A stretch of 64,000 nucleotides of DNA from Alphaproteobacteria bacterium (GCA_965207785.1 CBDBNO010000011.1:140664-204663), one strand, 5' to 3'. Positions 2,466-21,162 are shown, counted from the stretch's first letter. Numbers and translations: made by a program. The notes: generated from the letters alone by a model not told the origin.

Positions 2466-2876
2466 CGCTCGCCTCGCTCGTCAAGGGGAGGGTTTCTCGC
2501 GATTCTCCCCCTCGAGGTGCGCGCAACGAAAGCCGCCGCAAGGCACCTGCGCAGGCGCGCCCGGCTTGACGGCCTCGAGGGGCGTGAACATCGGGGAGAA
2601 CACCCGCACCGCCGATATGGGACCGTTGCGTGATCGCTGCCGGGTCGAGAATCGGGAAGGGAATAAGCGACCTGGGCCATGCGTCCCTCCGTGAAGACGG
2701 AACTGCGGCCCTGATATAACCCTATCGCCAGTGGGTGCCCCGAAAGATGGAACGACATCCAGAAGCTGTCAAGAGGTTGCCCAGGCGTTGAAAAAGAGAC
2801 GGGTCTTGGCCTTCATCGAGTCCGCTCAGGATCATCCTTTGCCGTACTCCGGTGCGGACCCCGGGTCAGGGGACAT

Positions 2877-4257
2877 TCAGATTTGAGCGACCGGGCGGCC
2901 GAGGGGAACAGCGGATTCCGGGAACCCGCAGGGCAGAAATTCGCCGCGTCCCGGCTCGGCCCGTATCTCGCCGTCCGCCCAGACCACTTCCCCGCGCGAC
3001 AGCGTGATGGCCGGCCATCCCGTGATGTTCATTCCCTCGTACGGCGTGTAGTCGACGTTGTGGTGCAGCAGGTCGTTGCTGATGGTCACCTCCCGCGAAT
3101 CATCCCAGATGACGATGTCGGCGTCGCAACCGACTGCGATCGTGCCCTTTTGCGGATAGAGCCCATAGAGCTTGGCGGGTGTCGTGGCTGTCAGTTCCAC
3201 GAATCGCTCGAGGCTGATGATGTTCTTGCCGACTCCCTCCGAGAAGAGGAGCGGCATGCGGGTCTCGACGCCCGGCACACCGTTCGGGATCCAGCGAAAC
3301 GAGGCGTCTTCGCCGCGCATCTTCTTTCCGCCGGGACCCTCGAAACGGGTCGGGGCATGATCGGAAGAAAACACGTCGAAGGTTCCGTTGCGAAGCCCAT
3401 CCCAGATCACCTGCTGGTTGGCCTTGTCCCGGGGCGGCGGGCTGCAGACGCACTTGGCGCCTTCGAAGCCGGGCTTGTCGAGGTCATCCTCGGTAAGGAA
3501 CAGGTACTGCGGACAGGTTTCCGCAAACAGCTTGAGACCGCGGGCACGGGCCCTGTGGATTTCGTCCACCACGTCACGAGCGGAAACGTGCACCAGCAGT
3601 ATCGGCACATCCAGGAGCTCGGCCAGGGTGATGGCCCGGTGCGTGCCTTCGCGCTCGACGGGCCGCGGACGGGAATGGGCATGGTACTTCGGCGCGATCT
3701 TGCCCGACTGCTCCAGCCGATCGGTCAGCCAGCTGATGCAGTCGCCATTCTCGGCATGCACCATCACGAAAGCCCGTTCGCGGCGCGCCAGCGCCAGCAC
3801 GTCCAGGATCTCGCGGTCATTCAGCATGAGGCCGTCGTAGGTCATGTAGATCTTGAACGAGGTGTAGCCGTCTCGGATCAATCCCGGCATTTCCTGGCCC
3901 AGGACGTGCTCGTTGGGATCAACGACGATCATGTGAATCGCGTAGTCGGTCATCGCTCGGTTCTCGGCGCGTCCGCGGTACTCGTTCACGGCCTCCCTGA
4001 GACTCTGGCCCCTGAACTGCAGGGCAAAGGGAATCACCGTGGTCGTGCCGCCGGCAAGCGCCGAGCGCGTGCCGGTCAGAAAGTCGTCGGCGCAGACCGA
4101 TCCATCCCTGCTGGGCTGATCGATGTGACAGTGGCTGTCGATGCCACCGGGGGTCACCGTTCGCCCCTCGGCGTCGATCACATGATCGGCGCCTTCCAGT
4201 GAATCCGCCAGCGCCGCGATGCGGCCTTCGCGGATGCCGATGTCACACCTGACGACG
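2877..4257 (-). pseudogene. D-hydantoinase/dihydropyrimidinase, 3' body of a split gene; missing its first ~18 codons, which lie at 14708..14760
   Basis: Annotated ORF gives ...PGGIDSHCH...; cyclic-amidohydrolase fold (HxH, KIYM, DHAP motifs). In-frame upstream reading gives VVRCDIGIREGRIAALADSLEGADHVIDAEGRTV, preceded by TAG and no start codon. The first in-frame start is an internal GTG at ~4182. Confidence 0.75.
4241..4257. repeat. 17-bp direct repeat TGTCACACCTGACGACG, left junction (attL core) of the integrated element
   Basis: Exact copy at 14691..14707. Flanking bases differ on both sides. Lies inside hydantoinase codons AVVRCD on the minus strand. Confidence 0.65.
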
Positions 4258-4372
4258 CACCTTCGGTGCTAAACAACTGATACAACGTAACGTTTTTCTC
4301 TCTCATGTGCAACTGCGGGACGTTTCCGCCACGGATTCTCCCGCCTCTGCAACTCATGACGAGAGGGAATCG

Positions 4373-5497
4373 ATGGCCGCGACCAAACTCACCCAGGCGC
4401 GCTTGCACGCGCTCCGGCCCCGCAAGACCGTCCGCGATGTCCGCGACGCCGAACTCAGGGGATTCGGCGTCCGTCTCTATCCGTCAGGGCGCAAGTGCTT
4501 CTTCATCCACAGCCAACACGAGGGGAAGAGGGTCTGGAAGATCGTCGGCGATGCCGCGTGCCTGAGCGTGGAAGACGCCAGGACCAGGGCCCGCTCCATG
4601 CTGGCAGCCGGCCGGCACGGCACGTCGGCAGCATCGGATCACATCCTGTTCGAGGAGGCGGCCGAGGAAGTCTTCCGCCGCTACGCCAGGAACTGGAAGC
4701 CCGGGACGCTCAGGGTCAACCGGGGTTACTTCGCCAACCAGATTCTTCCCTGGTTCCGGGGACGGCCGATTGCGGCCATCACGGCTGTGGATGTCCGGGA
4801 GTGGTTCGCCTCTCTCCATGCCACGCCGGTGGCGGCCGACCGGTCCGCTCCGGTGCTGTCCGTCATCATGGCCCAGGCGGAGGCCTACGGATACCGTCCC
4901 GAGGGCTCCAACCCCTGCCAGGGCATCAGGCGCTACCGGCGCAAGGGCCGGGAGCGCTTTCTTTCGGACGAGGAAGTCCGCCGGCTCGGGAGGGCGCTGC
5001 GCCGTCACGAAGAGCAATCGGGGATGCATGTGGCGATCATCCGTCTTCTCCTGCTGACCGGGTGCCGCAGTGCTGAGATCGTGACGCTTCGCTGGAGGGA
5101 GTACAGGGACGGTCATCTCCATCTCGCGGACTCCAAGACGGGGCCGCGCATGGTCTGGCTGTCGTCTCCGGCACGGACGATCCTGGACCGGCAACCCCGG
5201 ACGTCGCCGTGGGTCTTTCCTTCGGCCCGGACCGGCAGGTCCGTCGCGGCGGACGCCGTCGGCAAGTTCTGGCGGCAGCTTCGTCTGGAGGCTGGCCTGC
5301 GCGATGTCAGGCTGCATGACCTGAGGCACACATACGCCAGCATTGCCGTCATGACGGGGGAGAACGTGCTCACCGTCGGCCGGCTTCTCGGCCACAACGA
5401 TCCCGGCACGACACTGAAGTACACGCACCTTGCCGACGACGCGGTCGCCACGGCGGCCGAGGCGATGGGGCCCCTTCTCGCGAATGCCGCGTCATGA
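4373..5497 (+). CDS. tyrosine recombinase/integrase, P4-like with N-terminal arm-binding (DUF4102-type) domain
   Basis: MAATKLTQARLHALRPRKTVRDVRDAELRGFGVRLYPSGRKCFFIH matches the DUF4102 N-terminus. Catalytic box LLLLTGCRSAEIVTLRW, HDLRHTYAS, LGHNDPGTTLKYTHL (R, H-x-x-R, Y all present). The annotated ORF starts at 4307, but ATG 4373 better fits the family N-terminus. Confidence 0.85.
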   Translation: MAATKLTQARLHALRPRKTVRDVRDAELRGFGVRLYPSGRKCFFIHSQHEGKRVWKIVGDAACLSVEDARTRARSMLAAGRHGTSAASDHILFEEAAEEVFRRYARNWKPGTLRVNRGYFANQILPWFRGRPIAAITAVDVREWFASLHATPVAADRSAPVLSVIMAQAEAYGYRPEGSNPCQGIRRYRRKGRERFLSDEEVRRLGRALRRHEEQSGMHVAIIRLLLLTGCRSAEIVTLRWREYRDGHLHLADSKTGPRMVWLSSPARTILDRQPRTSPWVFPSARTGRSVAADAVGKFWRQLRLEAGLRDVRLHDLRHTYASIAVMTGENVLTVGRLLGHNDPGTTLKYTHLADDAVATAAEAMGPLLANAAS

Positions 5498-6645
5498 ACC
5501 GCCGGACAAGACTGACCGATGCCGTGATCCGGCGTCTCAAGCCCGGTTCTCGGGAATACACGGTCCGCGATACCGTGGTGCCCTCGCTGGGAGTGCGCGT
5601 GCATCCCTCCGGCGGCCGCGCCTATGTCCACGTCGCCGCGGGGCGGAAGGCATCGCTGGGTTTCGTGGCGCTCCGCACGGTCGAGGAGGCCCGTCGGGAG
5701 AGCCGTGCGCTGCTGGCGGATGGCATGCCAAAGAGGACGGCGGCGGCGCTCTTCCGGGACTTCGTCGCCGGTCCGTGGCGCCAGTCCTGGGTCCACCGGT
5801 GCAAGCCGTCGACGATCAGGTGGCGCGACGGACATCTCGACAAACGCCTTCTGCCGGCATTCGGCCACCTGCGCCTCGACCGCATGTCGCCGGCCGCGGT
5901 GACGAGATGGTTCGACGATTACAGCAGGACCGCTCCGGCCAACGCCAACCACTGCCTCTCGACCCTGCGCCACATCTTCAATCATGCGCTCGCCTGCGGG
6001 CATGTCGCCGCGAACCCCGTCCGCGGCGTCAGGCCCAACCCGCGCCGGAAGATCACCCGCTTCCTCTCCCGGGAGGAACTCGAGCGGCTGCACCGCGTTC
6101 TCGATCGCCATGCCGGCGTCGCAGCCATCAGACCGTCGCACCGCGACCAGATCGACATCATCAGGCTTCTTCTCCTGACAGGCTGCCGCAGGAACGAGAT
6201 CGTCCGCCTTCGCCGGGACGAGGTGGCCGGAACCCGTCTCCGGTTGCGCGACAGCAAGACCGGCCCCAGAACGGTGTTCCTGAACGCCGAAGCCCGGTCC
6301 ATCCTCGAACCAAGGCTGAAGGGCAGCCGGGAGTATCTGTTCACGTCGCCAAAGGATGCCGGACGGCCGCTCAATGAGAGGCTCCCGGTCTGGTACGCCG
6401 TCCGCAAGGAGGCAGGGCTTGAAGACGTCCGCCTCCACGATCTCAGACACACATATGCCAGTCATGCGGTCATGCAGGGAACGCCGCTTCCCGTCGTGGC
6501 GAGGCTCCTTGGTCACAGCAGGACGGCCATGACGCTGCGCTACGCCCACACCGGAGATGCCGAGACCGCGGCCGCCGCCGAGCGGATCGGCCGCGTCATC
6601 GCCGGACTCTGCGGATGCGCCGGCGACTCCGGCGCACCCGCCTGA
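5494..6645 (+). CDS. second tyrosine recombinase/integrase, paralog of the upstream gene, translationally coupled
   Basis: ATG overlaps the int1 TGA (ATGA at 5494-5497). LLLLTGCRRNEIVRLRR, HDLRHTYASHAVM, LGHSRTAMTLRYAHT; same domain layout as int1. Confidence 0.85.
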   Translation: MNRRTRLTDAVIRRLKPGSREYTVRDTVVPSLGVRVHPSGGRAYVHVAAGRKASLGFVALRTVEEARRESRALLADGMPKRTAAALFRDFVAGPWRQSWVHRCKPSTIRWRDGHLDKRLLPAFGHLRLDRMSPAAVTRWFDDYSRTAPANANHCLSTLRHIFNHALACGHVAANPVRGVRPNPRRKITRFLSREELERLHRVLDRHAGVAAIRPSHRDQIDIIRLLLLTGCRRNEIVRLRRDEVAGTRLRLRDSKTGPRTVFLNAEARSILEPRLKGSREYLFTSPKDAGRPLNERLPVWYAVRKEAGLEDVRLHDLRHTYASHAVMQGTPLPVVARLLGHSRTAMTLRYAHTGDAETAAAAERIGRVIAGLCGCAGDSGAPA

Positions 6646-6646
6646 C

Positions 6647-6664
6647 CCCGGGGCGCAGGCCCCG
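6647..6664. terminator. GC-rich hairpin CCGGGGC-gcag-GCCCCGG between convergent int2 and the adhesin gene
   Basis: 7-bp perfect inverted repeat with a 4-nt loop in the 67-bp convergent intergenic gap. No U-tract, as is common in high-GC genomes. Confidence 0.3.
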
Positions 6665-6712
6665 GGGCCGCGCGGGACCGTCCGCATCCATGACGCGGCG
6701 ATCACCGCCGCC

Positions 6713-9700
6713 TCACCAGCGGATGGCGAGATCGACCCCGATGCCGTGCTCCGCCCTGGCCGTGCCGCTCTCCCGGCGCGTCACCTTCACCCCAAACGAC
6801 AGGTCGGGCGCGCTCGCGCCCTCCGGCGTCAAGCGCCAGCCGAGGCTCCAGTCGCGCACGCCCGTGGCGAGCCCGAGGCCCGCATGCGGGCTGCCGGTCC
6901 AGCGCCCGCCGAAGGCCGGCAGGCCGTACGCCGCCTCCACCGCCCAGCGGGAGGTCGCCTCGCTGCCGGTGCGGTCCTCCAGCGTCTGCGGCTGGAACAG
7001 CGCGTCGAGACCGCCGGTGGCCCGGCCGCCGAAGTCATGGCGCAGGCTGAGCGACGCGCCCCGCTTCGTCGCCGGGGCCGGGTCGTATGCCAGCGCCGCC
7101 GCGAAGCCGCGGTCCTTCAGGTCGTCGTTGCCATGTGCGATGAGCGTACGGCCCGACAGGTCGAGCATGAGGCCCATGCCCGGATCGCTCCACCTGACGC
7201 CGCCGCCGGTCTCCACCCCGAAGCCGGTCTCCGCATCGCCGCCGTCATGGCGCGCGCCAAGCTCCAGCTTCGGCACGAGCGTGCCGCCGCCGTCGAGCGC
7301 GACATGGTAGCGGCCCTCAAGGCCGACCCGGAGCCGCGTCGCGTCGGAGTCCGACGCCGCGAGCCGGGCCGTCTTCTCCGAGGAGGTCCGCGTCCACAAG
7401 GCGTCCGAGGTCACCGCCAGCGCCGGGCCGGAGCCTTCCTGCGGGGCTTGGAGCAGGTCGCCCCGCAGCCCCGCCGCCGCCATGCTCCAGCTCGTGTCCG
7501 CGCTGTAGCGGCCGCCCAGTTCGGTCTTCAGCGTCACCTCGCCGGTGCCGTAGCCGGCCGCGCCCCAGAGCTTCAACCGCTCCGATGCCTGGAAGGCCGC
7601 ATAGGGGACCGCCGCCGTCAGCGACGCCTCCACCGTGCCGTCGCCCTCCCGCACCGCGCCCCGGCACAGCTCGGCCGCCTCGGCCGGGCAGTCCTGCGAG
7701 GCGGCGCGGGCCGCGATGTCCGTGTCGCGGTAGTCGCCCTCGCCGTCGCTCTGCGCCAGCGCAAGGCCGACCAGCCACCTGCCCCGGGCATAGTCCGCCC
7801 CCAGCATGCCGGTGGTGACCGTGCCGTCGAGCGAGAAGGTGCCCTCAGCACCATCGAAGCGCGCTTGCGCCGCCCGGCCCCAGAACGCCATGCTGCCGCC
7901 CGAGGAGTCCTTCTCGCCCGTCAGCGAGAAGCTGGAGCCCAGCAGCGCGTCGCGCGCCGTCATGGTGCGCGACTGCGCCGGGGTTTGACCGAAGCCGATC
8001 CCGCCTGTCCCGGAGACCGATCCGGGGCCGCCCGCGCTGCCGCCGAAGCCGCGCGCGATCTCCGCCATGGCCAGCGCCGCCTCGCCGTCGGGAGACCCCG
8101 CGGACCCGAGGTCCGGCCCGCCGCTGCCGGAAGGCGCCGGGTTGAGGTTGACCGCCTGTCCGGCGATCGCGCCCTGCATGCCGGGCGTGCGCGGCGCGGA
8201 CATCCGCCCCGCGATCCCGTCCAGCGCCTGCTCCGCCACCGTGCGACCGAACCGCGCCAGCCACGCCGCCGGCATCGGGTCGTCGTTGACGATGGTGCCC
8301 ACCGCAACCCCGTCGCCGATAACCGCACCCCGCGCCTTCGACAGCACCACCTCGAAGGTCTCCGCCCCCTCGTCATGGCTGTCGTCGTAGATCCGGATCC
8401 ACACCACCTTCTCCGTCTCCCCCGCCTGGAACGTCAGGTCGGAGCTGCCCGGCGCGTAGTCCCGGCCCGGCTCCGCCGACACCGGCGTCGACGGCCGCGT
8501 CGAGACATACACCCGCACCGGCGCGGGCGCCGGCGACGACAGACTCACCGTGAACGGCATCACCGGCAGGCGGCCGCCCTCCTTCGCCGTCGAGTCGCCC
8601 ACCGACAGCGCAGGCACCGTCGAAGGCACGTCGTCGTCCTTCACCTCGACCGACGCCGAGGCCGGATCGCCCACCGTGTAGCCCGCGCCGGCCTCGACCG
8701 TCACCACCGCCGCGCCGTCCGGCTCGTCGGCGTCGTCGTTCACCGTGGCGACGATGAACGACGCCTCCGTCGCGTCATTCGGGATCGTCACCGTGGCCGG
8801 ACCCTCGTCCGCCGCCGCCACGTGGTCGCCGTCCCCGGTCTCGGAGACCGCGAGCGTCACCGTCAGGTCGGCGTCCGGCGCGCGGTCGGCGGTGAGCGTG
8901 AACACCGCATCGCCGCCCTCGCTCACCGAGGCCGCCTTCGCCGCGATCGTCACCACGGGCGGCGGCAGGTCGTCGTCGCGCACCGCGACCGTGGCGTAAG
9001 CCGAAGCGCCGACCGTGTAGCCGCTGCCGTCCGTCACCGTCGCCGTGACCGAGCCGTCCGGCTCGTCCGCGGCGTCGTCGGTCGTCGCCAGGGTCAGCGT
9101 CGCGCTGCCGGTCGTGGGGATGGTGACCGTCTGCGTCCCGGCGGTCACGCCCCAGTCGCCGTCGGCCGCCACGCTCACGCTGACCGCCAGGTCCGCCGCC
9201 GGGGCGGGGGTCGCCGTCAGCGTGAACACCGCATCGCCGCCCTCCGTCACCGAGGCCGCCTTCGCCGCGACGGTCACCTCGGGCAGGGCCGCGTCGTCGT
9301 CACGCACCGCCACGGTGCCCGACGCCGGGTCGCCCGCCGTCCAGCCGCTGCCGTCCGCCACCGTCACGGTGACCGAGCCGTCGGGCTCGTCCGCGGCGTC
9401 GTCGGTCGTCGCCAGGGTCAGCGTCGCGCTGCCGGACGTGGGGATGGTGACGGTCCGGCTGCCGGCGGTCACGCCCCAGTCGCCGTCGGCCGCCACCGTC
9501 ACGCTGACCGCCAGGTCCGCCGCCGGGGCCGGGGTCGCCGTCAGGGTGAACACCGCGTCGCCGCCCTCGGTCACCGCGCTTCCCGCCGAGACCGCGATCT
9601 CCGGCGGGGTCAGGGGCGGCGTGTCGGGCGGCGTGTCGGGCGCCGCCGCCAGCTTCTCCAGCGCCTCGACGATCCGCGGCCACAGCGGGCTACTGTATTT

Positions 9701-12694
9701 CTGCGCATTCGCCTTCGCCTCCGCCAGCGTGGTCGGCGTCAGGCCGGGATACTCCTCCACGCCGAACGCCACCAGCACGCGCCGCCAGCGCTTCACATGC
9801 GCCGCGCCGTGCTGCGTCTGCGCCGCCATCGCGCGCACCTCCGCGACCAGCGCCGGGTCCACCGCCGCAACCGCCGGCGCCGCATCGTCGTCGTCCCGCA
9901 CGGAGACCGTGCCGGAGCCGGACGAGCCCACCGTGTAGCCGCTGCCGGCCGCCACCGTCACGGTGACAGAGCCGTCCGGCTCGTCCGTGGAATCGTCGCC
10001 GGTCGTCAGCGTCAGCGTGGCGCTGCCCGACGCCGGGATGGTCACCGTTTGCGTGCCGGCGGCGACGCCCCAGTCGCCGTCCGACGCCACCGTCACGCTG
10101 ACCGCAAGGTCCGCCGCCGGGGCCGGGCTCGCCGTCAGGGTGAACACCGCATCGCCGCCCTCCGTCACCGCGCTCCCCGCCGACACCGCGATCTCCGGCG
10201 TCTGCTGTTGCGGCTGGTCCTGCCCCTGCTCAAGCGACGACAGGTACACCGAGGCCGCCCAGAACGGGCTCGACGGCCACTTCGCCGCGTTCTCGTGGAT
10301 CTCGGAGGCCGGCATCGCCTCCTCCGGGCTCGCCGTATAGCCGATCGACGCCAGCACCCGGTTCCACTTCCTGATGTGCGCGGGATTGCCCTTCACCGCC
10401 TTGTTCGCCGGGTTGTCCCGCGCCGCGATCAGATGGTCCACCACCGTCTGGTAGTCGGTCCAGTCCGGCGCGCCCTGCCCGGGCTCGTGGTTGAGGATCC
10501 TGATCGCCGAGCGCACCGGCGTGAACGGCTGATAGCCGCCGCTCGCCTCCAGATGCACCGTGACCCACTCGCCGCTGTCCTCCGCCGAATCGTCGATAAT
10601 CGTCACCGGAATGACCGCCGTCGTCGCGCCCGGCGGCACCGTGACCGTCGACGGAACCGTGTAGTCGACGCCCCGCGTCGCATTGCCCGACAGCCTGTAG
10701 TTCAGGGTGAAGTCCGCACTCGGCGCCGGGTTGACCGCCACCACCAGGTTCACCGTCCCGGCCGTGCTCTCCCGCACCTGCCGCGAGTTGGTCACGAAGG
10801 ACACCTTGCGGGCGACCGAGTCGTCGTCGCGCACCGTCGCCTCCGCCGCCGCCCGGTGCGGGAAGGTGTGCCCGCCCACGGACAAGCCGTTCGTGTCGAT
10901 GGTGTAGCCGAAACGGCTCCCCGCCGGCACCACCGTCGTGACCGTCCCGTCCGCCGGCACCGTGCCGTCGGCCCGCGCCAGCGACGCCCGCACCGTGCAG
11001 TCCGGCTCCGCGGTGCCGTCGTTCACCGTCGGCACGGTCAGGACCGTGCTCCCGACCCGCGGCGCGAAGTAGACCTCGTGGCGCTTCGCGTTCCCCGGCG
11101 CCAGGCAGTTGCCGGTCTGCCCCACCTTCAGATGCACCGTGAACGGCCCCTGCGCCGGCGACGGGGCACTGACCTCGAAGTGGACGGGCTTCCCCTCCGC
11201 CACGCCGCCGTCGAGCGCCTGCGGGTGCCACTGCCTGACCGTGACCGTCGGGACGACGTTGCCCGCCGAGCCGTCCGGGCCGTCCTTGATCGTGATCCAG
11301 TACGGATCGTTGGTGACGACCCCGAAGGGCGGCGGGTTGCCTTCGCCCCAGCTGCCGACCGGGCCGGAGAACATCAGCATCCTGCGCACGTCGCTCTCGA
11401 CCAGGGTGGAAGGCGAGATCCGGAGAAGCGCAGTCTTGCTCTTCTCGCCGACGGCAAAGGTCAGGGGGGTGAGCCACTGGTGTGCATGGACGCCCGGCTG
11501 CACGTAGGCGTTCACGGCGATCTGCCGGGTCGCCGCCACGGGGATGAACCCCACCCCCTTCTCCAGCGCCGGGCGGACGAGCCGCGCATTGATGATGATG
11601 TCGCTGCCGGCGGGTGCCTCCGTAATCTCGCATTCGCGGCCGGTGCACGAGCCGCCGACAGGAACAATGCTGTCCACGATGACCAGCGGCGGGCCCGGCG
11701 AGGGCGTGTAGGGCAGCTCCTCCAGCAGCCTGATCTCGCCGTCGCCCGAGCGGCTCGACGAGGCCACCGTCACCCCCGTCGAGGTCACCGTGCCCAGGCT
11801 CACCGTCACCGTCTCGTCGTCGTCGGTGTTGTCCGGAGCGGCCTGCACCTCCAGCGTGGCCGCGGCGACCGACGGGCCGGTGAAGGTCACCGTGCTCCCG
11901 GACAGCGACACCCCCGTGAACGTGCTCGTCAGGAACAGGCTGAAGTCCGCGGGCCGCGAGGCGCCGGCGAAGTTCAGCGGAACCGTCACCGTCTCGCCGC
12001 TCACCAGCGCACGGCTCAGCGCCACGCGGATCTGCGCCACGTTGTTGGCGTCGTCCTCAACCGCAAGGTCGTCCGGGATCGACAGGGTGAGGGTGAAGGG
12101 TGGCTTGACCACGCCGCCGAGGCTGATTTTCAGGGGTACCGTGACGGTGGCCCATGCGCCTGTTGAATTCCATTGTCTACGCAAAGCGTTGTTACCGATG
12201 CTCCAGCCGGCCAGGGCTCCGCTGTCCTCGTTGTTCGAATCCGTGCTGCGTAGGTCCGACGAACCTCTATTGGAGCTCATATCGATCACAAGGAAGTACG
12301 TGGTACCGGCCGCAAGGTCGATGCCCGTGCTCGTGAAGGTCAGCGTCTGGTCCGAGTTGGAGTTGGTGAAGGCGGGGTTGGTCAGGGTCCCGAGAGAACT
12401 GCCCGGAGACCCGCTGGATTCGGAGTGGATGCTGGCGGTGAGCTGCGAAGAAGTAATATTGCTGATCGTGGAAAATTCCACTTCGACGCTGCGCAGGCTG
12501 TAACCTTCGCTGTTGCTGCCGGTCGTGAACGCCATGGCGTAATCGGTGCTCAAACCATATGCGGCTCCGTCTGCCTGACCGACGTTGCTGACAAAGGTCT
12601 GCGTCGTCTGCGCCTCGGCCCCGGTCGGCAGGGCGGCCAGCAGCGGCAGGGCGAGCAGCGCGGCGGCGAGGACCGGGCGCAGGCCGCGCCCCAA
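6713..12694 (-). CDS. giant type Va autotransporter adhesin (1,993 aa) with multiple Calx-beta domains and C-terminal beta-barrel translocator
   Basis: TTG start. Signal peptide MGRGLRPVLAAALLALPLLAALPTGAEA/QT. Repeated Calx-beta motifs (TEGGDAVFTLT...DDAADEPDGSVTV; GNATRGVDYTVP...IIDDSAEDSGEWVTVHL). C-terminal ~300 aa is a classic autotransporter beta-domain (MAFWGRAAQARFDG...LGADYARGRWLVGLALAQSDGEGDY...GIGVDLAIRW) ending in W. Confidence 0.85.
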   Translation of the reverse strand: MGRGLRPVLAAALLALPLLAALPTGAEAQTTQTFVSNVGQADGAAYGLSTDYAMAFTTGSNSEGYSLRSVEVEFSTISNITSSQLTASIHSESSGSPGSSLGTLTNPAFTNSNSDQTLTFTSTGIDLAAGTTYFLVIDMSSNRGSSDLRSTDSNNEDSGALAGWSIGNNALRRQWNSTGAWATVTVPLKISLGGVVKPPFTLTLSIPDDLAVEDDANNVAQIRVALSRALVSGETVTVPLNFAGASRPADFSLFLTSTFTGVSLSGSTVTFTGPSVAAATLEVQAAPDNTDDDETVTVSLGTVTSTGVTVASSSRSGDGEIRLLEELPYTPSPGPPLVIVDSIVPVGGSCTGRECEITEAPAGSDIIINARLVRPALEKGVGFIPVAATRQIAVNAYVQPGVHAHQWLTPLTFAVGEKSKTALLRISPSTLVESDVRRMLMFSGPVGSWGEGNPPPFGVVTNDPYWITIKDGPDGSAGNVVPTVTVRQWHPQALDGGVAEGKPVHFEVSAPSPAQGPFTVHLKVGQTGNCLAPGNAKRHEVYFAPRVGSTVLTVPTVNDGTAEPDCTVRASLARADGTVPADGTVTTVVPAGSRFGYTIDTNGLSVGGHTFPHRAAAEATVRDDDSVARKVSFVTNSRQVRESTAGTVNLVVAVNPAPSADFTLNYRLSGNATRGVDYTVPSTVTVPPGATTAVIPVTIIDDSAEDSGEWVTVHLEASGGYQPFTPVRSAIRILNHEPGQGAPDWTDYQTVVDHLIAARDNPANKAVKGNPAHIRKWNRVLASIGYTASPEEAMPASEIHENAAKWPSSPFWAASVYLSSLEQGQDQPQQQTPEIAVSAGSAVTEGGDAVFTLTASPAPAADLAVSVTVASDGDWGVAAGTQTVTIPASGSATLTLTTGDDSTDEPDGSVTVTVAAGSGYTVGSSGSGTVSVRDDDDAAPAVAAVDPALVAEVRAMAAQTQHGAAHVKRWRRVLVAFGVEEYPGLTPTTLAEAKANAQKYSSPLWPRIVEALEKLAAAPDTPPDTPPLTPPEIAVSAGSAVTEGGDAVFTLTATPAPAADLAVSVTVAADGDWGVTAGSRTVTIPTSGSATLTLATTDDAADEPDGSVTVTVADGSGWTAGDPASGTVAVRDDDAALPEVTVAAKAASVTEGGDAVFTLTATPAPAADLAVSVSVAADGDWGVTAGTQTVTIPTTGSATLTLATTDDAADEPDGSVTATVTDGSGYTVGASAYATVAVRDDDLPPPVVTIAAKAASVSEGGDAVFTLTADRAPDADLTVTLAVSETGDGDHVAAADEGPATVTIPNDATEASFIVATVNDDADEPDGAAVVTVEAGAGYTVGDPASASVEVKDDDVPSTVPALSVGDSTAKEGGRLPVMPFTVSLSSPAPAPVRVYVSTRPSTPVSAEPGRDYAPGSSDLTFQAGETEKVVWIRIYDDSHDEGAETFEVVLSKARGAVIGDGVAVGTIVNDDPMPAAWLARFGRTVAEQALDGIAGRMSAPRTPGMQGAIAGQAVNLNPAPSGSGGPDLGSAGSPDGEAALAMAEIARGFGGSAGGPGSVSGTGGIGFGQTPAQSRTMTARDALLGSSFSLTGEKDSSGGSMAFWGRAAQARFDGAEGTFSLDGTVTTGMLGADYARGRWLVGLALAQSDGEGDYRDTDIAARAASQDCPAEAAELCRGAVREGDGTVEASLTAAVPYAAFQASERLKLWGAAGYGTGEVTLKTELGGRYSADTSWSMAAAGLRGDLLQAPQEGSGPALAVTSDALWTRTSSEKTARLAASDSDATRLRVGLEGRYHVALDGGGTLVPKLELGARHDGGDAETGFGVETGGGVRWSDPGMGLMLDLSGRTLIAHGNDDLKDRGFAAALAYDPAPATKRGASLSLRHDFGGRATGGLDALFQPQTLEDRTGSEATSRWAVEAAYGLPAFGGRWTGSPHAGLGLATGVRDWSLGWRLTPEGASAPDLSFGVKVTRRESGTARAEHGIGVDLAIRW

Positions 12695-12861
12695 GCGGCG
12701 GGCGGCATGGCGGACGCCAGCAGCGGCGCGGGCGGCGGGAAGGTCGCGACTGTCGGGAGTGTCGTGATGCCCCCGGTTAGAGAGACCGGGGCAGGCAGAA
12801 GAAGAAGCGTCAGGCGGGGAGGCTAGCGGGCGAAAGCGGTCCCGTACGCAAGACGCAGGTT

Positions 12862-12979
12862 GGGCGACCCGGCGACCCGGCGACCCGGCGACCCGGCGAC
12901 CCGGCGACCCGGCGACCCGGCGACCCGGCGACCCGGCGACCCGGCGACCCGGCGACCCGGCGACCCGGCGACCCGGCGA
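12862..12979. repeat. perfect tandem repeat of the 8-bp unit GGCGACCC (about 14.7 copies), 168-285 bp upstream of the adhesin start codon
   Basis: Read directly: gggcgaccc ggcgaccc ... ggcgacc. It produces artefactual repeat peptides (PGDPATRR / GSPGRRVA) in two ORF-track entries. Confidence 0.9.
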
Positions 12980-13321
12980 CCATTATACCGCCGGCATCAT
13001 CCCGGTTTGTCAAGCCGTCGGGTGAGCGGATGTCGCTCGCCCCGCCGTCCGGAGCCCCCGCGAGCGCAACCTTCGCCGCGCGCAAAATGTCACCGATCCT
13101 GTCCAACATGGTCATCGCATTGGTCCCCAACTCTGTCGCCCGGCAGGCCCCGCAAGGCACACGCCCGCCGGTCAACGCCTGTTCCATCGGCAATTCGTAA
13201 GCGGATTCCGGCGGCAACGCAAACACGGATCGTCCAAGACCACCCTGATCGGCGAGCTGTCGTCGGGTTCGGCCACGTTGAGCGCACACCGGCGCCAGCA
13301 TCATCTGGCCATCGTGCCAGC

Positions 13322-13555
13322 CCTGCGAACGCCCGTTCGGAGACCCGGTACCTCTCGCGCAACTCGGCCGTCATCATGGCACGGTTGAAGAGCCACGCTG
13401 ACCTGCTCGACATGGTCTCGGGGGCGATGGTGCCGGTCATCAACGGTTGCTGCAATCTCTACCACCCCTGCCAGGCACTCGCGGACGTGCTGACTATCGC
13501 GGCGGACCGGCGCGGGGATCCCGGTGGCGCACGCCGCCTGACCTACGTCGGCGGG
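13322..13555 (+). pseudogene. ornithine/aspartate carbamoyltransferase internal fragment (~78 codons), gene relic
   Basis: ETRYLSRNSAVIMARLKSHADLLDMVSGAMVPVINGCCNLYHPCQALADVLTIAADRRGDPGGARRLTYVGG matches the OTC core (VPVING..HPCQALAD...YVGD). Sequence on both sides is unrelated. No start or C-terminal domain. Confidence 0.55.
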
Positions 13556-13694
13556 TTGCGGTTGAGCGCGCGATCGACCAGCAGCTTCGACATCGACACG
13601 CCCTCGCGCTCCGCCAGGGCGCGGATGCGCTCCCGTTCGAGACGGCTGCACGAGATCGAGTGCATGGTGGCTCTCTCCTCGACGCGCCGGCCCG

Positions 13695-14027
13695 TCATGG
13701 TCCCGGCCTCCCGGCGTCCTGCCGCGCCTGGAATTCCCGGGCCGCAAGGTAGAGGAACGACAGCGCCTCCATGGCGGTGACGTCGCTCCCCGGCAAGGGC
13801 TCCATCAATTCCTCGAGAAGAAGCAGGGTGCGGTTCACCCGATTGAGAAGGTCGCGCTGTTCGGATTCCGAGAGCACCAGGCGCATGTCGTCCTCGTCCT
13901 CCAGGGCGCAGGCGACCATGAAGCGCGAGATCGGCATCTTCGCCGCCTTGGCCCGCCGGCCGATCTCCGCCCAGTCGCTCGGGCGGCAGCTGACGCTGAA
14001 CAGCTGGTTGCGTCTCACGGTCGTGAC
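13695..14027 (-). CDS. small ribbon-helix-helix (CopG/MobC-N-terminal-like) DNA-binding protein, ~111 aa, GTG start
   Basis: VTTVRRNQLFSVSCRPSDWAEIGRRAKAAKMPISRFMVACAL... fits the RHH pattern (beta-strand, then A..G.S.S.y.r). Paralog of the next gene. Start inferred by alignment to the paralog. Confidence 0.45.
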   Translation of the reverse strand, partial: VTTVRRNQLFSVSCRPSDWAEIGRRAKAAKMPISRFMVACALEDEDDMRLVLSESEQRDLLNRVNRTLLLLEELMEPLPGSDVTAMEALSFLYLAAREFQARQDAGRPGP

Positions 14028-14347
14028 TCCTTCCCCTCGATCTCGACCTCGGCCTTCAGCAGGGACTCGATCTCCTCCTCGATCGCCTGCCAGGCCTCCG
14101 CTTCTCCGGCGCGCTCGAAGCGATGGCGCTCGATGCGGGCCAGCACCATGAGGTGATGCGCAAGGCGCCACTGCAGGTCGGCCGGAAGACCGGCCGGTTG
14201 GGGTGGTCTTGTGGTCAGCATCTGCTGCACAGCGTAGCGCGAGATGGGCATGTCGAGGGCCTTCGCGCGCTCGCCGATCCGGGCCCACTCGCTGTCTGAT
14301 GCCATGATGGTGCGCGCCTTGCGCCGCGGATCCTTCGCGTTCATCAT
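14015..14347 (-). CDS. small ribbon-helix-helix DNA-binding protein, ~111 aa, paralog of the downstream gene
   Basis: MMNAKDPRRKARTIMASDSEWARIGERAKALDMPISRYAVQQML...; shares the SDxEWAxIGxRAKAxxMPISRxxV core with the neighbour. Overlaps it by ~12 nt. Confidence 0.45.
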   Translation of the reverse strand: MMNAKDPRRKARTIMASDSEWARIGERAKALDMPISRYAVQQMLTTRPPQPAGLPADLQWRLAHHLMVLARIERHRFERAGEAEAWQAIEEEIESLLKAEVEIEGKESRP

Positions 14348-14690
14348 GGACTCGGTGGCCGGTGGTGGGAACGACGTAAGGGGGCCGTGATGGTGTGTTC
14401 TGGCGGATGTTCGCGTGATGTACTGGACAGAATCACCATGGTCTGCATTGGTATCCATTGTGTGTGATTGTCATGCATTGACGGTGTTCCGGAGCATATA
14501 GGCGATGGAAGAAAGTCTACGTATGACTTCCCCGAATGCAACTGTGGCTCTACGGATCGCTATGCATGTATAGATCTGATGTCGTCCGTGGTACTTGACA
14601 TGGCCGTATTCCGCGCGTAATTAGCGTGACTTGGAGAGAGAGATGCCTTTTGGTGTTTCGATTACATGTATACATGTCGTCAAATTTCTC

Positions 14691-14707
14691 TGTCACACCT
14701 GACGACG
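14691..14707. repeat. 17-bp direct repeat TGTCACACCTGACGACG, right junction (attR core)
   Basis: Exact match to 4241..4257. Preceded by a 230-bp AT-rich tract. Confidence 0.65.
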
Positions 14708-14760
14708 GCGGCTGATGTCGCCACCCTACCTCCCCGAACGATGGTATCGAATCTGCTCAC
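14708..14760 (-). pseudogene. displaced 5' end of the hydantoinase gene (start codon plus ~18 codons)
   Basis: Minus strand: AGGAGA ribosome-binding site, GTG at 14760..14758, then SRFDTIVRGGRVATSAAVVRCD running into the 17-bp repeat. Joined to 4240.., this gives MSRFDTIVRGGRVATSAAVVRCDIGIREGRIAALADSLEGADHVIDAEGRTVTPGGIDSHCH, a textbook hydantoinase N-terminus. An upstream in-frame TGA fixes the start. Confidence 0.65.
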
Positions 14761-14808
14761 GTGTCTCTCCTCTCATTCCTGGCGGCATGACGGACCGGCA
14801 GGCGAGCC

Positions 14809-15924
14809 TTAAGGCGGCGCCACGCCGAGCTGCCTGCCAATCTCCAGACCGTCCTCCCAGCAGTGGCGGTCGATCCGCACCTCGCCCTCTTCAAGCGCCT
14901 GCCTCCGGCGCGCGGCGCTGCCCTCGCCGGGATACCTGATTTCCGTCACGCCGGGAGCCTTCCTGGAGGACTTGAGCGCTCCGAGGCGCTGACCCACGGA
15001 GCGCTTGAAGTCCTCGATGCTGCCAAAGATCTCCGGGTCGATCGCGATGAACAGGTGACCCTTGAGGGGCCCCTCCTTTTCCACGTGGTCCACGCCCATG
15101 TCACAACCGACCAGGGCGCCCGAGAGGAAATCGATCAGCAGCAGCAGGCCGTAGCCCTTGTGTCCGCCCGGGTCGATCGCGCCGATATCGCGGGTGTAGT
15201 TGAGGCCGTCGCACACCAGGCCGGGGTCGCTCGCAGAACGCCCGTCGCTGTCGTGAGCCACCCCGTCGGGGAGCCTGCCCCGATAGCGCCGGGTATAGCG
15301 CACGTAGGTGGGAAGCGTCGCGCAGGGTGTGAAATCGGCCAGAAACGGCGTGCTTCCGGTCGGCACCGAGAACGCCATCGGGTTGCTTCCGATGACGGGT
15401 TCGACGCCGCCGACCGGGTGGACGACGGGCACGACATCGTCGCTGAACACCATGCCGACCACATCCCGGTTCGCCATGCGCTCCGCGTACAGGCCCGCAT
15501 GAAACAGGTCATGGCTGTTTCTCACCCCGACGACCGCGCACCCGGCGACTTTCGCCTTGGCGGCCGCGACCTCGGCCGCCAGAAGGCCGGCCAAGGGGCC
15601 CGGGCCCGAGTTTCCGTCGATGAGCGCGAAGCAGGCCTTTCCCCTGACGATTTGAGGTCTTGCGACCGGATCGGCCTCGCCCTTCCGGTAGTACTGCAGG
15701 TGGCTGTTGATCAGGTGATTGAAGCCCTGCACGCCCACGCCCCTCAGATCGGATTCGAGGTGCACGTCCGCCACCACGGCCGCAGCCTCCCGGTCGAACC
15801 CCACCGCTTCCAGGAGACGTTGCATGTAGATCCGCAGGACATCGATCCGAACCGCTCTCGTTTCGTGGCCAAGCATGATGTCTCTTCCCTCACGACCCCA
15901 ATGGCTGCCATGGACGGGGGGCAA
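14809..15924 (-). CDS. Ldh_2 family (malate/L-lactate/ureidoglycolate dehydrogenase type 2) oxidoreductase
   Basis: 371-aa ORF with family-typical glycine-rich motifs and length. The true start may be the internal Met at ~15876 (MLGHETRAV...). Confidence 0.65.
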   Translation of the reverse strand: MPPVHGSHWGREGRDIMLGHETRAVRIDVLRIYMQRLLEAVGFDREAAAVVADVHLESDLRGVGVQGFNHLINSHLQYYRKGEADPVARPQIVRGKACFALIDGNSGPGPLAGLLAAEVAAAKAKVAGCAVVGVRNSHDLFHAGLYAERMANRDVVGMVFSDDVVPVVHPVGGVEPVIGSNPMAFSVPTGSTPFLADFTPCATLPTYVRYTRRYRGRLPDGVAHDSDGRSASDPGLVCDGLNYTRDIGAIDPGGHKGYGLLLLIDFLSGALVGCDMGVDHVEKEGPLKGHLFIAIDPEIFGSIEDFKRSVGQRLGALKSSRKAPGVTEIRYPGEGSAARRRQALEEGEVRIDRHCWEDGLEIGRQLGVAPP

Positions 15925-16660
15925 TGCCGGTTTCGAAGACGCTGACCCGAAGCGGATAGACCGGAATCTCCACCTCTCTCCACCCTCGTGGCTCTACCGT
16001 TCCGTCCCCGTAAGGACAGATCGAGATCGCGACAACCTGCTCGATCTCGGCGTAGAACTCAATGTAATCGCCAACCTCGGCATCGCTGGTTCCGAATACG
16101 TAATCGCCGCTGCGAGGTTCGATGGCGACCTTGTAGAACAGGTTGAGATTGTCGTGGACCGCGTGCTGGCCGAAACCCATCATCGCCATTCCCGCGCGCA
16201 GGTTGTCGTAACAGGTTCTCGGGTGAACGCCGGCATACTGCACCCAGTGATGTGCGTTGCAGTGAGCAGCGTGGGAAATGTGGTCACGAGCATGATCGCC
16301 GTTGTCATGCCAGCGCACGGTGTCAGCCAGGCAGGTGCACAGGGGCCTCGAACGCGGGGGCGTTCCCCAAACCCGTGTGAACTTCTTGATACGGCCCCCC
16401 TCGAGGGCGATTTGAGCGGCCGGAAAATAGTGCTCGCTCGGGTCGTCCGGGTTCATCACGCAAACGTCCAGGGCATTCGTGCCTTCAACCACCGTGAGGC
16501 GCCACACTTGGCCTGCACTCACCCTGAAGCCGTAGCCGCTGCCGCGCGGCATCTCGTGCTCGAACACCGTTTGGAAGGACTCCCGGCGCGAGATCACGCC
16601 CTCGTAGAAGCCTGTGTCGAAGGAGTGTTTCTCCCGCACCATGGGTGCTGGTTCGGCCAT
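15890..16660 (-). CDS. conserved hypothetical protein, DUF1989-like (urea-carboxylase-associated family); tentative
   Basis: 256 aa, paralog of the next ORF. Shared motifs (..VxDxxAFNPxDPxE...FTRxWG...RPLxTxxxDTV). Confidence 0.4.
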   Translation of the reverse strand: MAEPAPMVREKHSFDTGFYEGVISRRESFQTVFEHEMPRGSGYGFRVSAGQVWRLTVVEGTNALDVCVMNPDDPSEHYFPAAQIALEGGRIKKFTRVWGTPPRSRPLCTCLADTVRWHDNGDHARDHISHAAHCNAHHWVQYAGVHPRTCYDNLRAGMAMMGFGQHAVHDNLNLFYKVAIEPRSGDYVFGTSDAEVGDYIEFYAEIEQVVAISICPYGDGTVEPRGWREVEIPVYPLRVSVFETGIAPRPWQPLGS

Positions 16661-16662
16661 GT

Positions 16663-17550
16663 TCAGCTCTCCCTTCCCGGAGTGGGCACCGGCTTGCTGG
16701 AGCGCCGGCCGTGGCCGTCCTCATAGAGAGAAAGATCGGGGTATGGCACTCCCGGATACGGCCAGCCCAGGGGGTCAGCGACCGGATAGCTCACCGCGAT
16801 CTTCACAGCGCGGGGACGTGGATGTCTGATTTCGGCGGGGGAACGCGAACCGTCGATGTATGGGCTGAGTGCCAGCAACACACTCAAGTCGATTTCGGCG
16901 AACAACGTCACCCGGTCGCCGCGCCTGGCATCGGAAGGGTGGATCCGGAACTCCTGGCTCGGCCCCTCGACTTCCATTCTCTGGAACAGGCTGATGTGCC
17001 CCTTGTCCAGCAAGGAGGGTTCGAGCGAGCGCGACTCGAGCGCGTCGGAAAACTGCTCCCATGTTGATTTCACGCCCTGCTGGCCGCCTTGAAGCCGCCA
17101 GTCTGACGGGGTTTCGAAACCGCCGAACAGAAAATGGTGCCTGCCCTCGCCGGTCCGCGCGGCGACCGTGTCCTCGACGAACGTCAGCAACGGGCGATAC
17201 CGGGCCATCGTTCCCCACAACCGGTTGAACCGCGTAAGATAGATCCCTTCGATCAGGCACATGTCCTGGGTCCAGATACGCTCGTCGGGATCGTGGGGAT
17301 TGAAGGCAAACAGGTTGACGATCTGCGCGCCTTCGGCGAGTTCGAGGGTCAGCAACTCGCCTGCAGCCAACGCGATGCACACGGCCCCTGTTCCGGCCAG
17401 CTCCTGGGTGGCGCGAAACTCCTCCGGCCTGAGATGATCGGCGAGTGACTGGTAGAACTTCCTCCGAAAAGGGCGCGGGTGCGCGGAGTTCGAAGGGTAG
17501 AGCTCGTAGTCCATCTGCTGCTTCTCCGGCCTCGAGGATCCCTGCGTCAA
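16663..17550 (-). CDS. conserved hypothetical protein, DUF1989-like paralog; tentative
   Basis: 295 aa. Same motif set as 15890..16660. The tandem pair resembles the 'urea carboxylase-associated protein 1/2' layout. Confidence 0.4.
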   Translation of the reverse strand: MTQGSSRPEKQQMDYELYPSNSAHPRPFRRKFYQSLADHLRPEEFRATQELAGTGAVCIALAAGELLTLELAEGAQIVNLFAFNPHDPDERIWTQDMCLIEGIYLTRFNRLWGTMARYRPLLTFVEDTVAARTGEGRHHFLFGGFETPSDWRLQGGQQGVKSTWEQFSDALESRSLEPSLLDKGHISLFQRMEVEGPSQEFRIHPSDARRGDRVTLFAEIDLSVLLALSPYIDGSRSPAEIRHPRPRAVKIAVSYPVADPLGWPYPGVPYPDLSLYEDGHGRRSSKPVPTPGRES

Positions 17551-17577
17551 GAACGCGTGCCGGTCCCATCCGGCGCG

Positions 17578-18374: not shown

Positions 18375-18407
18375 TTTGCGAGTCCAAGCGTGACTGCCCC
18401 CGTTCGT

Positions 18408-21140: not shown

Positions 21141-21162
21141 GCCACGAACTCCCGTTGCATTT

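Follow-up and report, generated by a model that had tools for sequence, protein, structure and literature searches.

In the Opa proteins of Neisseria, CTCTT repeats in the region coding for the signal peptide set the reading frame, and the multiple paralogs of a genome switch independently. Type Va autotransporters such as BrkA, pertactin, AIDA-I and EspP are single polypeptides, with a Sec signal, a beta-helical passenger and a carboxy-terminal barrel of 12 strands in about 255–280 amino acids, ending in an aromatic residue. The LapA, BapA and RTX adhesins (PF20579, PF03160) are built of tandem beta-sandwiches with acidic motifs, which make up a Ca2+-stiffened stalk with a distal ligand-binding region; they are exported by type 1 secretion and have carboxy-terminal RTX signals and amino-terminal retention modules. 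In the hmw1A and hmw2A genes of Haemophilus influenzae, (GCATCATC)12–15 lies 200–213 nucleotides upstream and (TGAAAGA)13–38 about 100 nucleotides upstream (PMC2651432). Strains differ in the number of copies, and expression changes with it (Dawid et al. 1999, cited in PMC2651432). Here, we describe a gene for a large putative adhesin that resembles each of these systems in part, located in a 64,000-nucleotide stretch of DNA (the window) from an Alphaproteobacteria bacterium (GCA_965207785.1, CBDBNO010000011.1:140664-204663). The explanation that fits best, and which we hold with moderate confidence, is that of a sponge-symbiont Calx-beta adhesin with an enlarged barrel, carried in an integrase-linked cassette and preceded by a repeat that switches the reading frame, its unit length not being a multiple of three. 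Statements on the function of the adhesin are inferred from sequence, comparison and prediction.

The open reading frame (ORF) of the adhesin occupies positions 6713–12694 of the minus strand and encodes 1,993 amino acids plus a stop, as an earlier note on this DNA had proposed with the same coordinates. Both its codon-position bias and its thousands of homologs make clear that it is coding: GC is 0.68, 0.58 and 0.92 at the first, second and third codon positions (GC3 for the third), with a GC3 of 0.74–0.83 in the neighbouring genes. The gene as a whole has a GC content of 0.725, and on the scale of the window GC climbs to 0.73–0.755 over the gene, compared to 0.60–0.66 on both sides. An exact-protein look-up of the adhesin returned no record. 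An antisense ORF of 1,869 amino acids (6557–12166, plus strand) was rejected as a shadow ORF of the high-GC gene. The TTG at 12694, which the earlier note took as the start, is the first canonical start of the ORF, but the frame remains open for 96 further codons 5' of it, this stretch is kept as peptide in relatives and no Shine-Dalgarno sequence is present upstream of the TTG. The native start is probably not the TTG.

Upstream of the gene, 169 nucleotides before the TTG, the gene strand reads (GGGTCGCC)x14.9, a perfect array of octanucleotides at 12863–12981 (minus strand, TRF score 238). The earlier note makes no mention of this array, which is the most informative feature of the locus. 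A promoter-like pair (12982–13013, minus strand) precedes it, consisting of TTGACA at 13013–13008, a 20-nucleotide spacer and TATAAT at 12987–12982, the latter abutting the array; because of the 20-nucleotide spacer, a consensus promoter scan did not call the pair. The leader between the array and the TTG (12695–12862, minus strand) is open in the adhesin frame. With 63 C and 31 G over the 128 nucleotides of 12695–12822, this C-rich leader resembles a Rho loading site. It is homologous to a conserved Ser/Pro/Arg-rich amino-terminal extension of the relatives, which shows in-frame indels in the adhesin frame (…ASPPESS…RRPASSSDSF…AARRLRRGL..ALL.LPLL). Within the leader, the TGA of a conserved 14-mer, GCCTCCCCGCCTGA (12810–12823, minus strand), ends an upstream ORF, and a TAG 13 nucleotides upstream closes the third frame. 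The upstream ORF (12810–13115, minus strand; 101 amino acids as sequenced) starts at a conserved ATG at 13115 (MTMLDRIGD...), is preceded by an SD-like (Shine-Dalgarno-like) GGGGA and reads through TTG-ACA and the array. The remaining conserved 5' part of the cassette (13116–13232, minus strand) ends at about 13232, where homology to two related loci, L001 and L020, stops. An Rfam search of 12500–13500 gave no family.

Relatives were surveyed via the carboxy-terminal domain of the adhesin (last 518 amino acids). A word-index search yielded more than 945 matches, an exhaustive profile search at E ≤ 1e-30 yielded 4,187 cluster representatives, and at least 334 loci encode the domain in one-genome-per-species contigs. 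Thirty-nine loci, the window and 38 others, carry a perfect array upstream of the gene, with 4.8–40 copies and 100% matches. The periods are 5, 7 or 8 nucleotides, never a multiple of three. The 8-nucleotide units are GGGTCGCC, GGATCGCC, GGATTGCC, TCAGCCGG, GACTCGGC and AGCCGCCG, the 5-nucleotide units GCCGA, AGCCG and AGCCA, and the 7-nucleotide units CCCCGAG, GCCGGAC and AGCCAAG. A G-quadruplex, considered for (GGGUCGCC)n, was discarded as a general explanation, since G-runs are missing from many arrays (GCCGA, AGCCAAG, GGATCGCC). TTGACA together with TATAAT or TACAAT abuts the array in 31 of the 39 loci, with spacers of 20 or 23 nucleotides (17 in one locus), and the leader with the 14-mer in gene orientation is present in 28 loci, including metagenome-assembled genomes (MAGs) named Spirochaetia, Binatia, Acidobacteria and Poriferihabitaceae. 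The array length is polymorphic: L006 and L044, two contigs of one MAG, have 10.8 and 4.8 units, respectively, where 400 nucleotides on each side are 100% identical and the next 1.6 kb are 99.9% identical. Other pairs with identical or near-identical upstream flanks differ by 3–18 units; a second copy of the window locus was not found. Given that arrays, hexamer pair and leader are conserved and that the lengths differ, the array is hypermutable and belongs to a conserved module that accompanies the gene. In a metagenome scan, the window-type leader gave 0 matches and (GGGTCGCC)4 gave 79, of which only those in three or four LXNI01 contigs show the architecture of the cassette; the others are short or imperfect arrays in unrelated contexts. 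As most matches are without that architecture, the octamer alone is not diagnostic. Further perfect 8-nucleotide arrays of the same type are present at 13885–13951 of L021, 13511–13545 of L023 and 20886–21146 of L033, the last of these preceding a second, convergent adhesin-like gene, so other genes may use the same switch module.

We propose that the adhesin is expressed stochastically. The array would gain and lose units by slipped-strand mispairing, and each slip would shift the frame in which ribosomes from the upstream ORF enter the leader, as the unit length is not a multiple of three. One frame would continue into the adhesin; the other two would run into conserved stops within about 50 nucleotides, leaving the C-rich and Rho-prone leader untranslated. 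An upstream ORF with an SD-like sequence and ATG begins 93–155 nucleotides before the array in most loci. In 32 of 39 loci, no stop interrupts the adhesin frame from the array to the core of the signal peptide, and each of the non-adhesin frames is closed in 30 of 32, usually 2–91 nucleotides beyond the array. The stops in the off-frames are the TGA of the invariant CCTGA/14-mer and a TAG made with a CTA codon, while a second type of leader contains a conserved ATGA overlap of start and stop. As sequenced, the window copy would be one base out of frame ('phase OFF'), with at most basal initiation at the TTG; when one unit is added or two are removed in simulation, a continuous ORF of 2,136 or 2,128 amino acids results, containing both the upstream ORF and the adhesin. 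As in the opa genes, a repeat that is not a multiple of three lies in the amino-terminal, leader-coding region of a surface adhesin. However, Opa proteins are small, with 8 strands, and their start codon immediately precedes the repeat, while here the repeat is located about 130 nucleotides after the poorly conserved start of the upstream ORF and about 170 nucleotides before the signal peptide.

Several observations weigh against this account. In only 7 of 37 loci do the upstream ORF and the adhesin share a frame, which is not above the chance expectation of one-third and leaves a simple fusion unsupported as the only mechanism. Purifying selection on the peptide encoded by the upstream ORF is absent (codon-position differences of 92/92/92), and the stretch from the array to the signal peptide is only weakly coding by codon position (160/122/163). 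The precursor in the ON state would have an extension of about 140 amino acids before its signal peptide, which is unusual for Sec substrates. Finally, the perfect conservation of TTGACA and TATAAT speaks for a promoter whose transcripts would begin inside the array and lack the upstream ORF, although a spacer of 20 or 23 nucleotides is non-canonical for such a promoter.

These last points lead to a possible but less probable alternative, in which the array tunes the transcript. The promoter-like pair would start transcription in the first unit, the number of units would exert a graded effect through leader length or regulator spacing, and translation would begin downstream of the array, in the window at the TTG and in other loci at an ATG that directly follows the repeats. 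The perfectly conserved hexamers are AT-rich in DNA of 65–75% GC, would be rare codons if coding, and abut the array in most loci, as given above; the lack of purifying selection on the upstream peptide and of enrichment of in-frame fusions agrees with a function in transcription, as does the in-frame ATG found directly after the array in many loci. There is also a close precedent in the hmw1A/hmw2A repeats (PMC2651432): 12–38 copies of a 7- or 8-nucleotide unit, 100–213 nucleotides upstream of a large adhesin gene. HMW1 and HMW2 differ from the adhesin described here in being two-partner (type Vb) proteins of one pathogen, with AT-rich units and an effect at the level of the promoter, while the window-type module has GC-rich units, is found across phyla and contains an upstream ORF, stops in the off-frames and an adhesin frame that stays open, features that suggest control of the frame. 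Tuning of the transcript, moreover, leaves unexplained why periods of 5, 7 and 8, never a multiple of three, occur in about 9 independent unit types, and why both non-adhesin frames contain stops where the adhesin frame is open. The spacers of 20 or 23 nucleotides (17 once) fall outside the sigma-70 optimum and change in steps of three nucleotides, the consensus scan called no promoter, and window-like loci have no start codon between array and signal peptide. We rate the frame switch as somewhat likelier than an effect of leader length, since it accounts for the array periods, for the stops in the off-frames and for the adhesin frame being open. Under either model, expression of the adhesin would vary stochastically.

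That the window copy is instead a decaying or silent gene, and its array a neutral, mutation-prone remnant without regulatory use, is very improbable. The upstream ORF is out of frame in the window and the closest relative is fragmented into several ORFs, as a decaying gene would be, but the ORF of 5,979 nucleotides is intact and has a strong coding signature, the surrounding architecture is conserved, and perfect arrays in 39 loci imply ongoing turnover under selection rather than decay. In L001 (a 5.1-Mb contig; 6938–12460 and 14026–22460), this closest relative, with 79% identity in the barrel, is split into at least three ORFs, owing to frameshifts or to assembly errors. It adjoins F-type conjugation genes (TraL, E, K, B, V and C) and lies downstream of PAAR and Cas3 genes.

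The control module and the genes behind it may have partly separate histories. The segment about 220–400 nucleotides upstream of the arrays is 100% identical between L006 and L007, which belong to different MAGs, and between L024 and L030; just downstream, the adhesin genes of these pairs have diverged to 69–85%. This suggests that the control module recombines or undergoes gene conversion independently of the adhesin gene. The mature amino-termini encoded behind the module are often non-homologous among loci. Given identical control modules in front of diverged genes and diverged mature amino-termini, we see the family as conserved export ends that bracket exchangeable passengers.

The adhesin starts with the core of a signal peptide (residues 1–28; 12611–12694, minus strand), GRGLRP-VLAAALLALPLLAAL-PTGAEA|QTTQ. 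By inspection, the n-, h- and c-regions of a Sec signal peptide can be recognised, with cleavage predicted at AEA|Q; the earlier note had likewise named a signal peptide. The region is conserved in relatives as ...LRRGL..ALL.LPLL.GLA...A|Q. The precursor would thus be exported by Sec. The mature protein begins with a head domain (residues 29–205; 12080–12610, minus strand), of which residues 36–193 match the choice-of-anchor R family (NCBIfam NF041539) with an E-value of 1e-29. The AlphaFold2 (AF2) model of residues 29–205, made with 25 homologs, is all-beta, a predicted jelly-roll or beta-sandwich, with a predicted local distance difference test (pLDDT) score of 95.8 and a predicted template modelling (TM) score of 0.90. 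Foldseek comparison with the PDB gave only weak similarity (TM-scores of about 0.5–0.6) to phage baseplate and receptor-binding proteins, carbohydrate-binding modules (AcXE-CBM, CBM6/35/36), a collagen-binding domain and a lectin-like domain. Judging from the fold, the head probably binds a ligand of host or matrix, possibly a glycan. Homologs of the head with 38–78% identity are present in MAGs named Acidimicrobiaceae, Chloroflexi, Nitrospira and Synechococcus (SB06xx bins), where certain of them are coupled to cadherin or other domains, which fits a surface binding module that is combined with differing anchors. A second, unrelated type of head forms the first 80 or so mature residues in L002, L006, L007, L019, L020, L044, L056 and L064 (…ECTTANTDGSY.VP.DWALKPSG…FRLLF.TST.RDAT…), behind the same leader and signal peptide; adhesin heads appear to be exchangeable.

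The head is followed by the stalk (residues 206–1475; 8270–12079, minus strand), which contains about eight modules of the Calx-beta/LapA type, delimited with an internal hidden Markov model (HMM) seeded on four near-identical repeats of 108 amino acids. The modules comprise residues 206–322, 481–592, 630–737, 832–938, 1030–1136, 1137–1244, 1245–1357 and 1360–1475. Calx-beta modules had been predicted for this protein, and a search with PF03160 bears this out. The whole protein scores 66.6 bits, where the cut-off is 27; modules are matched at about residues 627–720 and 1312–1455, and individual segments score 31.3 and 56.9 bits. Three of the 108-residue repeats are in tandem (residues 1030–1357; 8624–9607, minus strand), with a period of 324 nucleotides and 87% matches, and the fourth copy is found at 9881–10201 (minus strand) by tandem-repeat analysis and the internal HMM. 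All four remain below the PF03160 threshold and match LapA (PF20579) weakly (E 2e-4). They are tied to the Pfam-positive modules by the internal HMM (E 1e-6 to 1e-8) and are co-linear with the Pfam-positive terminal module in hhalign (E 6e-5, probability 65%). Six modules contain acidic DDxxDExxG/E motifs (DDSAEDSGEWV, DDSTDEPDGSV, DDAADEPDGSV twice, DDADEPDGAAV and DDSHDEGAETF), and these clusters are predicted to bind Ca2+. In seawater, the stalk would then be a rod of about eight sandwiches stiffened by Ca2+ via the DDxxDE clusters, much like the stalks of LapA, BapA and RTX adhesins, from which the protein differs in having a Sec signal and a carboxy-terminal barrel.

The passenger is less uniform than the earlier note suggested, where all of its approximately 1,650 residues were assigned to Calx-beta modules: the first 175 or so mature residues form the head, and the modules are interrupted by two alpha-helical inserts of about 90 residues and by a stretch of about 150 residues (323–480) that matches no family. 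The first insert (residues 740–830; 10205–10477, minus strand) carries the motif H.RKWNRVLASIGY, and a related motif occurs in relatives; the second (residues 940–1029; 9608–9877, minus strand) carries HVKRWRRVLVAFG. Both are located between Calx-beta modules, share the motif H..RW.RVL.A.G and match no Pfam family. Similar motifs are found at or near the amino-termini of the relatives P0094, L041, L046 and L067.

A junction (residues 1476–1600; 7895–8269, minus strand), recognised from the alignment and AF2, connects the stalk to the barrel. It consists of a conserved amphipathic helix, AWLARFGRTVAEQALDGIAGR (residues 1477–1499), about 100 residues before strand 1, and a disordered Gly/Ser/Pro-rich linker of about 60 amino acids in between. 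The barrel itself comprises residues 1601–1993 (6716–7894, minus strand). In a single AF2 model based on an alignment of 58 sequences, with a mean pLDDT of 74.7 overall and 85–95 in the strands, residues 1601–1992 (about 390 amino acids) form 18 strands, with both long loops on the extracellular side and both termini in the periplasm. The chain ends in ...GVDLAIRW, within a conserved EHxxGxExxxRW motif; the terminal W, already pointed out in the earlier note, is invariant in the alignment. A conserved pair of cysteines, Cys1669 and Cys1677 (7672–7698), is present in the long loop that joins strands 3 and 4 and is predicted to be extracellular. The pair, with Q.CP......LC.GAVR as the family consensus, may form a disulfide-stapled loop.

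This barrel had been described as canonical for autotransporters, which the searches and the model contradict. PF03797 matches neither the whole protein nor the last 518 residues alone at E ≤ 10, the NCBIfam autotransporter models (including TIGR01414) do not match, the adhesin being below the threshold of every autotransporter model, and the barrel found no match in the PDB even at E ≤ 10, whether a single sequence or a profile was used. The earlier note had named a failure to model as a 12-strand barrel as refuting its reading, and AF2 gives 18 strands. Among 58 close relatives, PF03797 matches 7 (best E 5e-12) and OMP_b-brl matches 9. The PF03797 match in relatives comprises profile positions 1–207 of 255, that is, the first 225 or so of about 395 barrel residues, and the link between barrel and autotransporters is a transitive one, through relatives. 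Foldseek matches with the best identity are the beta-domains of BrkA, EspP and EstA (19–21% over about 260 columns, TM-score of about 0.5), while full-length alignments are to barrels of 22–26 strands, with TM-scores of about 0.3. The translocator appears to be an enlarged form of the type V barrel, in which the first ten or so of 18 predicted strands would derive from an autotransporter beta-domain. It would be inserted by the beta-barrel assembly machinery (BAM) through its terminal aromatic signal, anchor the passenger in the outer membrane and probably translocate it. The idea of a large surface adhesin, put forward in the earlier note, is supported in this form, exported by Sec and anchored by a barrel.

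An ordinary type Va autotransporter, with a 12-strand barrel, constitutive expression from the TTG, an integrase island of which it is the sole cargo and an incidental repeat, is an unlikely description of the locus. It would account for the signal peptide, the Calx-beta matches, the terminal W and the adjoining integrases, and certain relatives match PF03797 or bear the NCBI name 'autotransporter outer membrane beta-barrel domain-containing protein'. The barrel, however, does not model as 12 strands, which weakens this description; at about 390 residues and 18 predicted strands, only its first part is spanned by PF03797 in relatives, it is missed by PF03797, the NCBIfam models and the PDB when the adhesin itself is searched, and its TM-scores to BrkA are around 0.5. 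In type Va proteins a pore-spanning helix immediately precedes strand 1, where the adhesin has its disordered linker, and the passenger is a beta-helix rather than a chain of beta-sandwiches with a jelly-roll head. The array, the promoter-like pair and the leader, being conserved with the gene across phyla, are not incidental, and the TTG has no Shine-Dalgarno sequence but 96 conserved open codons upstream.

The unusual barrel also raises the question of whether it is only an anchor or pore, with the passenger exported by the translocation and assembly module (TAM), a two-partner-like system or another machine, or remaining in the periplasm. A barrel of 18 strands is unlike all characterised type V translocators, and the conserved helix about 100 residues before strand 1, with the disordered linker in between, would be in keeping with such an arrangement. 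We nevertheless consider it improbable. The first ten or so strands are homologous to autotransporter beta-domains, the barrel is always found at the extreme carboxy-terminus of very long repeat proteins with amino-terminal signal peptides, and no linked Omp85/POTRA/TpsB-like or other secretion gene is present in the window or recurs in related loci. In Acidimicrobiaceae- and Chloroflexi-named MAGs the head is paired with other anchors, as expected for a surface module.

The gene is a typical member of a very large family, as yet without a name, that bacteria of many phyla would share through horizontal transfer. Family members typically have 1,000–3,500 amino acids, with a maximum of about 7,300, and the barrel domain at the extreme carboxy-terminus. 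The best 80 of the at least 334 loci have 50–74% identity over all 518 residues of the carboxy-terminal domain. They come from MAGs named Alphaproteobacteria, Thalassobaculaceae, Paracoccaceae, Defluviicoccus, Ca. Binatia, Spirochaetia, Vicinamibacteria/Acidobacteria, Gemmatimonadota, Nitrospirales, Thermodesulfobacteriota, Gammaproteobacteria, Thiotrichales and Ca. Poriferihabitaceae, which by MAG names amounts to about eight phyla; several copies per genome are common among these 80. Full-length relatives from four classes are all about 2,000 amino acids long, with Calx-beta modules adjoining the barrel, and the gene is richer in GC than its flanks in 53 of 61 loci. No homolog of the family was found in the plasmids of PLSDB. 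While Calx-beta modules on an autotransporter had been thought rare, the 4,187 clusters and at least 334 loci show the combination to be abundant in its niche. As to this niche, most MAG names indicate sponge microbiomes: the bin names RHO, CAR, COS and SB06xx correspond to sponge species in Robbins et al. 2021 (PMC8163846), and Poriferihabitaceae comprises genera with names taken from sponges. The bacteria that carry the adhesin family appear to be sponge symbionts, and the family seems specific to them. We infer this origin from MAG and bin names and from the literature rather than from sample metadata, which counts against the sponge part of our account. Calx-beta domains are reported to be enriched across phyla in sponge microbiomes, and until now they have been mentioned there only as a 'eukaryote-like' domain that is enriched (PMC9531527, PMC11706023). 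A literature search gave no paper that ties Calx-beta to autotransporters in a sponge setting or that reports a repeat switch.

Directly downstream of the adhesin gene, and convergent with it, are two genes for tyrosine recombinases. The nearer, int2 (5494–6645, plus strand), matches PF00589 and has orthologs with 48–56% identity directly 3' of relatives. The other, int1 (4307–5497, plus strand), is of the P4 type, with Arm-DNA-binding, SAM-like and catalytic domains (PF00589, PF13356) and orthologs with 56–60% identity. The two are paralogs with 38% identity and overlap by an ATGA at 5494–5497, so they are likely to be translationally coupled. A convergent int2-int1 pair follows the relatives in six other loci (L030, L051, L052, L070, L073 and L046). 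Cassette homology stops about 250 nucleotides upstream of the array, at about 13232, and on the integrase side it fades at about 4244–4256. Control region and gene would form a cassette of about 6.5 kb which, with the adjoining coupled recombinases, makes up a putative integrative element of about 9 kb (about 4250–13232). These limits suggest a unit with the adhesin as its only cargo.

The earlier note had placed the adhesin on a mobile element as its sole large cargo. The adjoining integrases, the recurrence of the pair in six other loci and the foreign GC3 agree with mobility, but most relatives have no integrase within 10 kb. That there is no further gene between the integrases and the control region agrees with a sole cargo; the ends of the element, on the other hand, are unproven, as no attachment (att) repeats were found. 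The two edges in the window share no repeat of 10 nucleotides or more, and a further search gave nothing beyond chance-level 11–12-mers in the window and in L070, with no such repeats in L030. An empty site is not known for the element, and the sole tRNA call in the window is 33 kb away, leaving no tRNA target near it. P4-type integrase islands are similar in having an integrase with Arm-DNA-binding, SAM-like and catalytic domains beside cargo of foreign composition; they differ from this locus, where no tRNA target or flanking repeats were found and two recombinases accompany a single-gene cargo. The adhesin is plausibly mobile between genomes, and the mobile unit is better described as a cassette of promoter, repeat, leader and adhesin that rides in several kinds of element.

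Just outside the 5' edge of the cassette, at about 13340–13780 (plus strand), is a fragment of an aspartate/ornithine carbamoyltransferase gene, in which only the last third of the N-domain matches (…YHPCQALADVLTI…); from this position, the gene was probably truncated by the insertion. The surrounding genes (250–4181 and 14809–25923) are catabolic and include two amidohydrolases, a TauD-family dioxygenase, Ldh_2, a DUF1989 pair, an NMT1-type ABC transporter, hydantoinase A/B and a class-III aminotransferase, which would suit the use of host-derived nitrogenous compounds. The tRNA mentioned above, a tRNA-Ala(GGC) called by ARAGORN at 46040–46132 (plus strand), is unusually long at 93 nucleotides and lies within long ORFs on both strands; the call may be spurious.

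The presumed host provides a further comparison. The MAFp3/p4 proteins of the sponge Aggregation Factor contain arrays of 8–29 Calx-beta domains per protein and mediate Ca2+-dependent adhesion (PMC5400394, PMC11670116). The adhesin shares with them an extracellular array of Calx-beta modules, although the Aggregation Factor is a eukaryotic proteoglycan with wreath and vWFD domains. Interaction of the adhesin with the Aggregation Factor, or mimicry of it, is a hypothesis. In the widest reading, which we put forward tentatively and regard as rather doubtful, the locus would be a mobile symbiosis-adhesin cassette of sponge microbiomes that crosses phyla, uniting a new 18-strand translocator of type V-like character, a self-contained phase-variation module of broad host range that moves with the gene from phylum to phylum, and a Calx-beta stalk with exchangeable heads that engage or mimic the Aggregation Factor. 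The module would consist of the promoter-like pair, the upstream ORF and the repeat of 5, 7 or 8 nucleotides with its off-frame stops.

How sponges keep dense and diverse symbionts while eating other bacteria is a long-standing open question. If the reading is true, symbionts could stochastically vary their attachment and escape recognition or phagocytosis by the host. Type V systems would prove more varied than is known if a barrel can begin like that of an autotransporter and continue with about six further strands, and it would be unusual to find, outside pathogens, a repeat switch that is conserved together with its gene in different phyla. The adhesin locus links the enrichment of Calx-beta in sponge microbiomes to a concrete and abundant family, with an export route, a mobile cassette present in about eight phyla and a proposed stochastic switch. 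Three questions thereby become open to direct test: is the attachment of symbionts phase-variable, does the adhesin bind the Aggregation Factor of the host or its glycans, and does lateral transfer of a single cassette help unrelated bacteria into the sponge niche?

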